Source of the DNA: Escherichia coli
Lineage (GTDB): Bacteria > Pseudomonadota > Gammaproteobacteria > Enterobacterales > Enterobacteriaceae
DNA length: 64,000 nt
Strand: one strand, 5' to 3'
Assembly (NCBI RefSeq): GCF_030013205.1
Contig: NZ_CP122648.1
Shown here: one piece after another, positions 9,001 to 12,000 of the stretch
Layout of the letters: each line of letters starts with the position of its first letter
How positions within the stretch are numbered: position 1 is the first letter of the stretch
Position numbers: made by a program

Positions 9001-12000
9001 TGGCGCAGCAGCGTGGACTGCGCAACATGCAATTTTTCCCGCTGCAATCGTATGACGCTTTACCCGCACTGCTGAAGATGGGCGATTGCCATCTGGTGGT
9101 GCAAAAACGCGGCGCGGCAGATGCCGTATTGCCGTCGAAACTGACCAATATTCTGGCGGTAGGCGGTAACGCGGTGATTACCGCAGAGGCCCACACAGAA
9201 CTGGGGCAGCTTTGCGAAACCTTTCCGGGCATTGCGGTTTGCGTAGAGCCGGAATCGGTCGAGGCGCTGGTGGCGGGGATTTGCCAGGCGCTCCTGCTGC
9301 CCAAACACAACACGGTGGCACGTGAATATGCCGAACGCACGCTCGATAAAGAGAACGTGTTACGTCAATTTATAAATGATATTCGGGGATAATTATGGCG
9401 CAGTCGAAACTCTATCCAGTTGTGATGGCAGGTGGCTCCGGTAGCCGCTTATGGCCGCTTTCCCGCGTACTTTATCCCAAGCAGTTTTTATGCCTGAAAG
9501 GCGATCTCACCATGCTGCAAACCACCATCTGCCGCCTGAACGGCGTGGAGTGCGAAAGCCCTGTGGTGATTTGCAATGAGCAGCACCGCTTTATTGTCGC
9601 GGAACAGCTGCGTCAACTGAACAAACTCACCGAGAACATTATTCTCGAACCGGCAGGGCGTAACACTGCACCTGCCATTGCGCTGGCGGCGCTGGCGGCA
9701 AAACGTCATAGCCCGGAGAGCGACCCGTTAATGCTGGTGCTGGCGGCGGATCATGTGATTGCCGATGAAGACGCGTTCCGTGCCGCCGTGCGTAATGCTA
9801 TGCCATATGCCGAAGCGGGCAAGCTGGTGACCTTCGGCATTGTGCCGGATCTACCTGAAACCGGATATGGCTATATTCGTCGCGGTGAAGTGTCTGCGGG
9901 TGAGCAGGATACGGTGGCCTTTGAAGTGGCGCAGTTTGTCGAAAAACCAAATCTGGAAACCGCGCAGGCCTATGTAGCAAGCGGCGAATATTACTGGAAC
10001 AGCGGTATGTTCCTGTTCCGTGCCGGACGCTATCTCGAAGAACTGAAAAAATATCGCCCGGATATCCTCGATGCCTGCGAAAAAGCGATGAGCGCCGTCG
10101 ATCCGGATCTCGATTTTATTCGCGTGGATGAAGAAGCCTTTCTGGCCTGCCCGGAAGAGTCGGTGGATTACGCGGTCATGGAACGTACGGCAGATGCCGT
10201 TGTGGTGCCGATGGATGCGGGCTGGAGCGATGTCGGTTCCTGGTCTTCATTATGGGAGATCAGCGCCCACACCGCCGAGGGCAACGTTTGCCACGGCGAT
10301 GTGATTAATCACAAAACTGAAAACAGCTATGTGTATGCCGAATCTGGCCTGGTCACCACCGTCGGGGTGAAAGATTTGGTGGTAGTGCAGACCAAAGATG
10401 CAGTGCTGATTGCCGACCGTAACGCGGTGCAGGATGTGAAAAAAGTGGTCGAGCAGATCAAAGCCGACGGTCGCCATGAGCATCGGGTGCATCGTGAAGT
10501 GTATCGTCCGTGGGGCAAATATGACTCTATTGATGCGGGCGACCGCTACCAGGTGAAACGCATCACCGTGAAACCGGGCGAGGGCTTGTCGGTACAGATG
10601 CATCATCACCGCGCGGAACACTGGGTGGTGGTCGCAGGAACGGCAAAAGTCACTATTGACGGTGATATCAAACTGCTTGGTGAAAACGAGTCCATTTATA
10701 TTCCGCTGGGGGCGACACATTGCCTGGAAAACCCGGGGAAAATTCCGCTCGATTTAATTGAAGTGCGCTCCGGCTCTTATCTCGAAGAGGATGATGTGGT
10801 GCGCTTCGCGGATCGCTACGGGCGGGTGTAAACGTCGCATCAGGCGCAGTTTGTCGGATGCGGCGTGAACGCCTTATCCGAACCGCGATGTAAATAACGA
10901 CAAAAACAAAATTGGCCGTTTCGGTCAGGGCCAACTATTGCCTGAAAAAGGGTAACGATATGAAAAAATTAACCTGCTTTAAAGCCTATGATATTCGCGG
11001 GAAATTAGGCGAAGAACTGAATGAAGATATTGCCTGGCGCATTGGTCGTGCCTATGGCGAATTTCTCAAACCGAAAACCATTGTGTTAGGCGGCGATGTC
11101 CGCCTCACCAGCGAAACCTTAAAACTGGCGCTGGCGAAAGGTTTACAGGATGCGGGCGTCGATGTGCTGGATATTGGTATGTCCGGCACCGAAGAGATCT
11201 ATTTCGCCACGTTCCATCTCTGCGTGGATGGCGGCATTGAAGTTACCGCCAGCCATAACCCGATGGATTATAACGGCATGAAGCTGGTGCGCGAAGGGGC
11301 TCGCCCGATCAGCGGCGATACCGGACTGCGCGACGTCCAGCGTCTGGCAGAAGCCAACGACTTTCCTCCCGTCGATGAAACCAAACGCGGTCGCTATCAG
11401 CAAATCAATCTGCGTGACGCTTACGTTGATCACCTGTTCGGTTATATCAACGTCAAAAACCTTACTCCGCTGAAGCTGGTGATCAACTCCGGGAACGGCG
11501 CGGCGGGTCCGGTGGTGGACGCCATCGAAGCCCGCTTTAAAGCCCTCGGCGCACCGGTGGAATTCATCAAAGTGCACAACACGCCGGACGGCAATTTCCC
11601 CAACGGTATTCCTAACCCGCTGCTGCCGGAATGCCGCGACGACACCCGCAATGCGGTCATCAAACACGGCGCGGATATGGGCATTGCCTTTGATGGCGAT
11701 TTTGACCGCTGTTTCCTGTTTGACGAAAAAGGGCAGTTTATCGAGGGCTACTACATTGTCGGTCTGCTGGCAGAAGCGTTCCTCGAAAAAAATCCCGGCG
11801 CGAAGATCATCCACGATCCACGTCTCTCCTGGAACACGGTTGATGTGGTGACTGCCGCAGGTGGCACGCCGGTAATGTCGAAAACCGGACACGCCTTTAT
11901 TAAAGAACGTATGCGCAAGGAAGACGCCATCTACGGTGGCGAAATGAGCGCCCACCACTATTTCCGTGATTTCGCTTACTGCGACAGCGGCATGATCCCA

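Follow-up and report, generated by a model that had tools for sequence, protein, structure and literature searches.

Organization of the cpsB-cpsG spacer

The window, that is the whole 64,000-nt stretch of Escherichia coli DNA analyzed here (NCBI RefSeq assembly GCF_030013205.1, contig NZ_CP122648.1), carries a repetitive extragenic palindromic (REP) element, the most frequent kind of intergenic repeat in E. coli, in the spacer between cpsB and cpsG, two genes of the colanic acid operon. Both gene names follow RefSeq as annotated for strain K_EC180, whose sequence is 100% identical to the window over positions 10700-11100. The spacer comprises 128 nt (10832-10959), and the features within and around it, together with a second REP that serves as reference, are as follows.

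9395-10831, plus strand: cpsB, mannose-1-phosphate guanylyltransferase, with its TAA stop codon at 10829-10831 (open reading frame and RefSeq annotation of K_EC180)
10832-10866, plus strand: predicted alternative RNA hairpin, formed when 10832-10841, in the Z2 fragment region, pairs with 10857-10866, the 5′ arm of the Y REP, and containing a 4-bp inner stem
10833-10845, minus strand (the consensus reads on this strand): CGTCGCATCAGGC, 13-nt head fragment of a Z2-type REP
10846-10852: GCAGTTT, head-to-head linker of 7 nt from the Z2 fragment to the Y REP
10853-10881, plus strand: GTCGGATGCGGCGTGAACGCCTTATCCGA, Y-type REP without its CTAC tail
10878-10881: CCGA, the kept copy of a 4-nt microhomology at a 64-bp deletion junction
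10882-10905, plus strand: ACCGCGATGTAAATAACGACAAAA, right flank with the A-rich linker, in single copy and shared by every E. coli allele
10906-10955, plus strand: candidate cis-regulatory RNA, matching the algC RNA motif (Rfam RF02929) with 78.2 bits (gathering score 33.8; E 7e-18)
10960-12330, plus strand: cpsG, colanic acid phosphomannomutase, with its ATG at 10960 (open reading frame list and RefSeq annotation of K_EC180)
449-482, minus strand: second REP of the cluster, an intact Y-type copy with GTAG in the wzc-wcaA spacer, used as in-window reference

The mechanical open reading frame list (10912-12330, plus strand) places the cpsG start at TTG 10912, through the algC motif; the RefSeq start in the identical strain is ATG 10960, with AAGGG just before it.

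Which REP counts as Y and which as Z2 is our own assignment, made from the consensus sequences of these types. The pairing of the two types is itself backed by the match of a longer, 280-nt allele of this spacer to the naRNA4 model. The Z2 head fragment CGTCGCATCAGGC begins 2 nt past the cpsB stop codon and has the same sequence as the final 13 nt of GTAGGCCTGATAAGACGCGGCAGCGTCGCATCAGGC, the full Z2 REP seen in the 192- and 280-nt alleles, with a chance expectation of 0.09 matches; it represents the terminal partial copy of an 88-nt unit of a bacterial interspersed mosaic element of type 2 (BIME-2). The linker that follows it differs between alleles (GCTGTTT, GCTGATT, GCTGGCT). Elsewhere in the window, positions 57464-57476 on the minus strand read CGTTGCATCAGGC, which differs from the Z2 head fragment by one mismatch and may be another REP remnant.

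Identity of the palindrome

The palindrome gtcggatgcggcgtgaacgccttatccgaacc lies at 10853-10884, within the cpsB-cpsG spacer, and is imperfect, its arms (10854-10866 and 10869-10881) being 85% complementary. The window holds two copies of its 24-nt core GGATGCGGCGTGAACGCCTTATCC, one at 10856-10879 on the plus strand and the other, identical, in the canonical REP copy at 456-479 on the minus strand; shuffled versions of the window gave an expectation of 0.00 matches to this core. The published 36-nt REP consensus of E. coli is GCCGGATGCGGCGTGAACGCCTTATCCGGCCTACGA (PMC12306157), and the first 28 nt of the palindrome agree with it at 27 of 28 positions. The sequence-only reading, which had noticed a REP-like palindrome between the two genes, counted it as the second of the cluster and proposed a comparison with the REP consensus, is upheld in these respects. 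The interval that it gave, 10835-10890, contains the Y REP but also takes in part of the Z2 fragment; likewise, the element is indeed a REP, but its truncation (the missing CTAC tail and the deleted Z2 partner) had been overlooked, as had the competing hairpin formed with the Z2 fragment and the algC motif at 10906-10955. The REP at 449-482, which is found in K-12 too, is probably what that reading meant by a first REP.

The element shares further properties with the Y-type REPs of BIME-2 (nomenclature of Gilson, Bachellier and Hofnung; Ton-Hoang et al. 2012, PMC3333891), namely the Y core, the stem mismatch, the extragenic position and the dispersal over the chromosome. It is confined to the 128-nt spacer, and the REP segment has other chromosomal matches in nearly every E. 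coli genome, with a median of 3 by megablast or 11 by blastn. The mismatch C10861.U10874 is present in the RNA fold of the window copy, and the window DNA ATAAGG/CCGCAT corresponds to the AA-GC bulge described in PMC8266576. Unlike a canonical Y REP, the stem foot reads GTCGGA...TCCGAC, a locus-specific compensatory change from GCCGGA...TCCGGC. The conserved CTAC/GTAG tetranucleotide is absent: the window copy reads ...TTATCCGAACCGC where intact alleles read ...TTATCCGACCTAC, and it ends in ...TTATCCGA, followed by ACCGCG in place of the conserved CCTAC tail.

That the element is an intrinsic terminator, an internal cpsG promoter or a fortuitous palindrome is scarcely credible. A GC-rich stem-loop is certainly present, but it is not followed by a U-tract, the sequence after 10881 being CCGAACCGCGATG with no run of T, and a scan of positions 10600-11100 returned no terminator-like and no promoter-like (sigma-70-like) site (0 each); the null chance expectation for the core argues against the last of the three.

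The RefSeq annotation of K-12 was discarded as a check on REP identity, as the record carries no repeat features; the missing annotation is uninformative because the canonical wzc-wcaA REP is unannotated there too. No paper on a cpsB-cpsG REP was found by a literature search on the word start "REP", which was swamped by unrelated words.

Allelic variation of the spacer in E. coli

Population counts were made over 5,426 complete E. coli genomes with junction-specific megablast queries, in which a 28-nt seed was forced across the diagnostic junction. At least one full Y-Z2 unit is present in 3,225 of the 5,426 genomes, only the 13-nt fragment in 795, K-12 among them, and no REP material in at least 343; the form of the window occurs in 17. 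About 1,050 genomes remained unclassified, some of which do not have a colanic cpsB-cpsG junction. The site consists of n copies of the 88-nt unit (Z2 head, linker, Y, linker, Z2 body) plus the terminal 13 nt, so that n = 0, 1 or 2 yields spacers of 104, 192 or 280 nt. The K-12 spacer has 104 nt and holds the 13-nt Z2 fragment as its only REP material, which makes K-12 an invalid reference for this spacer; many strains have a 192-nt spacer (fragment, linker, Y, linker, Z2), and some a 280-nt spacer in which the 88-nt unit is repeated. Alternating Y and Z2 REPs with short linkers are present in the 192- and 280-nt alleles, and the window keeps the Y REP and 13 nt of Z2. Between alleles, the number of REPs at the site spans 0 to 4. 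Across these genomes, the site is a polymorphic BIME-2 array in E. coli, and between-strain variation of BIME-2 tandem copy number at one locus is a described property (PMC3333891).

The REP-free form is an unrelated 101-nt spacer (L007 433-533; also L024, L032 and L035), single-copy in the genome, in which a TAG stop is followed by TAGTTGAATAATCAACCGGATTAATTCTCCGG; it takes the place of the REP region while the CpsB and CpsG proteins on either side are otherwise identical, and it is this spacer that occurs in the at least 343 genomes counted above. Two metagenome contigs (L107 and L089) hold further E. coli-like variants of the cpsB-cpsG spacer, one with a long AT-rich linker between two REPs, which may be BIME-1-like, and the other differing in the sequence that precedes the last Z2 REP. 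Of 60 complete genomes sampled evenly, about 8 have no cpsB-cpsG junction, and several of these match only the O9-family rfbK, at ~75% identity; this suggests that the colanic acid region has been replaced or lost in a sizeable minority of E. coli.

Origin of the window allele

A 192-nt allele with the right flank GAATGCCGAACCGCG is present in 71 genomes (L010, L011). These alleles carry CCGA at the end of the Y palindrome and again 64 nt downstream, reading ...TTATCCGA, then CCTAC...GAATGCCGA, then ACCGCG, and removing exactly the 64 nt between both CCGA copies yields the 128-nt spacer of the window. Such a deletion accounts for the loss of the CTAC tail, the short linker, the entire Z2 REP and AATGAATGCCGA; what stays behind is the Z2 head fragment with a Y REP that lacks CTAC. 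The L010 and L011 strains also share the CpsB protein accession with the window-identical strain. Moreover, the O-antigen region of the window (20500-42000) is an O139 family cluster that exactly 17 complete genomes, each of swine origin, share at 99% identity or more, and thus places the window in a porcine O139 lineage (edema disease or enterotoxigenic E. coli). The 17 genomes with the O139 region equal in number the 17 with the window allele, and all 8 listed strains belong to both sets. Because of this agreement, the window allele most likely reflects a single deletion event that marks one clone, and the 128-nt spacer offers a clean marker allele.

Predicted RNA folding of the spacer

The REP's own hairpin (10854-10881) has a predicted dG of -16.5 kcal/mol (z = -4.5, with 0 of 200 shuffles as stable) and consists of 11 bp and one mismatch: the stems 10854-10860/10875-10881 and 10862-10865/10870-10873, the loop UGAA and the C.U mismatch. 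The alternative hairpin at 10832-10866 is predicted at -20.0 kcal/mol (z -3.9), begins 1 nt past the cpsB stop codon, and is mutually exclusive with the REP's own hairpin. It dominates the predicted ensemble, with a probability of 0.83-0.997 against 0.16-0.0 for the REP's own stem, and is complete before the 3′ arm of the REP is transcribed; masking nt 10832-10846 in the ensemble calculation lifts the REP's own stem to 0.96. Either fold leaves one strong predicted hairpin after cpsB. The 192-nt allele (L010 fold) has the same hairpin and an additional Z2 hairpin, and the K-12 spacer has no such hairpin (dG -9.1, z +0.5). Downstream of the REP, the A-rich linker at 10882-10905 is predicted to be unpaired, which makes it a candidate site accessible to endonucleases. 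Pairing of the freed 3′ arm of the REP with the algC loop, predicted in one minimum free energy structure, was rejected, its ensemble frequency being only 0.0065.

The position of these hairpins bears on whether the element acts as a translational down-regulator of CpsB, which we consider unlikely. As PMC12306157 summarises Liang et al. 2015, structures <16 nt away from a stop codon can stall ribosomes, and the rule in the form quoted there fits the alternative hairpin, with its start 1 nt after the TAA and its dominance of the predicted ensemble. This hairpin is a prediction only, however, the canonical REP stem begins 22 nt after the TAA and hence beyond the <16-nt range, and alleles without any such hairpin are common.

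The algC motif and the spacer in other genera

The conserved element of the cpsB-cpsG spacer is the algC motif, not the REP, and it is already catalogued in Rfam. It is separate from the REP, which occupies a slot immediately 5′ of it, and it is single-copy. The member in the window is full-length and high-scoring, lies upstream of a phosphomannomutase gene, and ends 4 nt ahead of the cpsG ATG. Every E. coli spacer allele carries the motif, and in a test of diverse enterobacterial loci 11 of 11 reached the Rfam threshold. The motif is said to belong to the Weinberg et al. 2017 candidate set. Its Rfam stem pairs GGCCG (10914-10918) with CGGUC (10922-10926) and is followed by the invariant GGGCCAACUAUUGCCUGAAAAAGGGUAA, which contains the cpsG Shine-Dalgarno region; in E. 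coli, a predicted pairing of UUGCCU with GGGUAA (10938-43/10950-55) would cover that region. A UUGGCC/GGCCAA stem, although thermodynamically favoured, was set aside, as it is unsupported by cross-genus covariation, whereas the Rfam stem covaries.

The cross-genus set was drawn from 5 Enterobacter genome loci, found by a pattern scan for the algC core, and 120 metagenome loci, found by a conserved pattern in the 5′ part of cpsG; the core scan gave those 5 Enterobacter loci only and none from E. coli, Salmonella or Klebsiella. Among the 44 distinct manC-manB spacers with an algC-like motif in this set, 39 have a GC-rich REP-like palindrome between the stop codon and the motif and 5 have none. 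The palindromes represent at least 10 sequence types, in either orientation and in one or two copies. The slot may thus accept REP insertions very readily, or a hairpin at this place may be at a mild advantage.

A stronger version, to which we give little credence, holds that, across Enterobacteriaceae, selection keeps a stable hairpin in the slot that runs from the manC/cpsB stop codon to the algC motif, each lineage refilling it with its own REP family, and that this hairpin, the A-rich linker and the algC motif work as a single intercistronic module for processing and translation, which sets the ManC:ManB (CpsB:CpsG) ratio. If so, the natural E. coli alleles, with 0, 1, 2 or 4 hairpins, would together act as an existing dial for tuning, and the window allele would be one of its settings, where a terminating ribosome would make the fold change from the hairpin next to the stop codon to that of the REP.

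Interpretation and possible effect on the operon

Taken together, the element is very probably a decayed remnant of a BIME-2 array, that is of alternating Y and Z2 REPs, between the cpsB stop codon and the algC motif, with at most a modest effect at the RNA level. The locus resembles BIME-2 in alternating Y with inverse Z2 over short linkers and in its strain-variable copy number (0, 1 or 2 units); unlike an intact BIME-2, the window holds a single tail-less Y REP and a 13-nt Z2 fragment, GTAG/CTAC and the Z2 partner being lost. TnpA-REP depends on the GTAG tetranucleotide and does not accept mutations there (PMC3333891; PMC8266576), so that this copy would be frozen, neither bound nor cut by the enzyme.

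REPs are known as barriers to 3′ exonucleases and as partial, context-dependent Rho-dependent attenuators (bioRxiv 10.64898/2026.03.23.713779; PMC6061677), and by analogy either role is plausible here. The operon transcript would form one stable hairpin directly after cpsB. Co-transcriptionally, this would be the hairpin between the Z2 fragment and the Y 5′ arm, and a terminating ribosome covering the first ~15 nt would favour the REP's own hairpin instead. Cleavage in the A-rich linker could then leave a hairpin that blocks 3′-to-5′ exonucleases, the generic REP effect and the most likely molecular one, and weak pausing or Rho-assisted attenuation might occur at the REP. Both effects would modestly favour the wza-cpsB part of the mRNA over the cpsG-wcaM part, and, because the common 192-nt allele has a second (Z2) hairpin, the effect would be weaker in the window than in that allele. 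In the window the effect on colanic-acid mRNA is thus probably modest at most, and, given the 795 fragment-only and at least 343 REP-free genomes, the REP would be dispensable for colanic acid synthesis.

The sequence-only reading suggested that the REP could affect mRNA stability differently in the two halves of the operon, which is a reasonable analogy for what would be a weak effect at best. A possible but doubtful alternative along this line is that the REP is a selected regulator giving the two halves of the operon different mRNA stabilities, as the REPs of malE-malF and yjdM-yjdN do. The stable predicted hairpin right after cpsB is consistent with this, as is the occupation of the slot by a GC-rich palindrome in most of the enterobacterial spacers. 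The element resembles REP325/naRNA4 of the yjdM-yjdN operon in being a BIME-2 array within an operon, between co-oriented genes; REP325 is reported to stabilise the upstream mRNA and to attenuate the downstream gene partially and in a Rho-dependent manner, and REP-containing tandem gene pairs show a raised median log upstream/downstream ratio of 0.96 against -0.09 in controls (bioRxiv 10.64898/2026.03.23.713779). REP325, however, has six Y-Z2 units, whereas the window has less than one unit. A similar likeness holds for the REPs of malE-malF and hisJ-hisQ, which also lie between genes of one operon and whose hairpins protect the upstream mRNA from 3′ exonucleases (Newbury et al. 1987, as cited in PMC6061677); those cases were tested by experiment, and the cpsB-cpsG REP differs from them in being absent in many strains. 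What speaks against selection is that ~26% of classified E. coli, the colanic-acid-proficient K-12 included, have no complete REP here, that the number of REPs varies freely between alleles, and that the window copy is itself a deletion product limited to one clone.

Action of the element as DNA, as a site for gyrase, HU or nucleoid organisation, is highly improbable. BIME-2 elements count as strong gyrase sites. Gyrase cleavage sites are over-represented in BIME-2, favouring y-type REPs, but only a subset of BIME-2 elements is bound by gyrase (PMC6379681). A proposed role of naRNA4-type RNAs is the condensation of DNA. Their Rfam model (RF02564) derives from the Y-l-Z2 repeats of REP325 (PMC4550694), and in the 280-nt allele the Z2-linker-Y segment exceeds its gathering score of 59.5, at 75.1 bits. 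Membership of the window element was rejected on the same model, with scores of 34.0 bits (minus strand) and 23.8 bits (plus strand), and the element has lost its Z2 partner; moreover, REP325 had no nucleoid effect in a 2026 preprint (bioRxiv 10.64898/2026.03.23.713779).

Several points weigh against reading the element as a BIME-2 remnant of modest effect. L010 and L011 are each 1-2 substitutions off the window, so that neither is the exact parent of its allele. The 39 of 44 occupied slots find an explanation on a neutral view only if the site is permissive or hot for insertion. All functional steps described above are inferred. Finally, the cps operon is transcribed by RfaH-modified polymerase, by which Rho-linked attenuation at the REP would be expected to be blunted.

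The element is best described as an ordinary, though truncated, copy from a well-known family of repeats, located where copy number varies freely; REPs, BIME-2 arrays, their copy-number polymorphism and generic RNA effects have all been described already, and the algC motif is already in Rfam. The step in RNA-seq coverage across the junction by which the sequence-only reading proposed to reveal an effect on mRNA stability cannot be sought in K-12 data, because K-12 has no REP at this position. The natural series of alleles (no REP, fragment, one hairpin, one unit, two units) beside a conserved algC motif would provide a cheap test bed for REP dosage in an operon.

Other RNA features of the window

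Four further features of the window reach the Rfam gathering scores.

20559-20597, plus strand: JUMPstart, ahead of the O-antigen genes
43319-43442, minus strand: histidine operon leader
46181-46255, plus strand: small RNA STnc240
47841-47964, plus strand: small RNA STnc490

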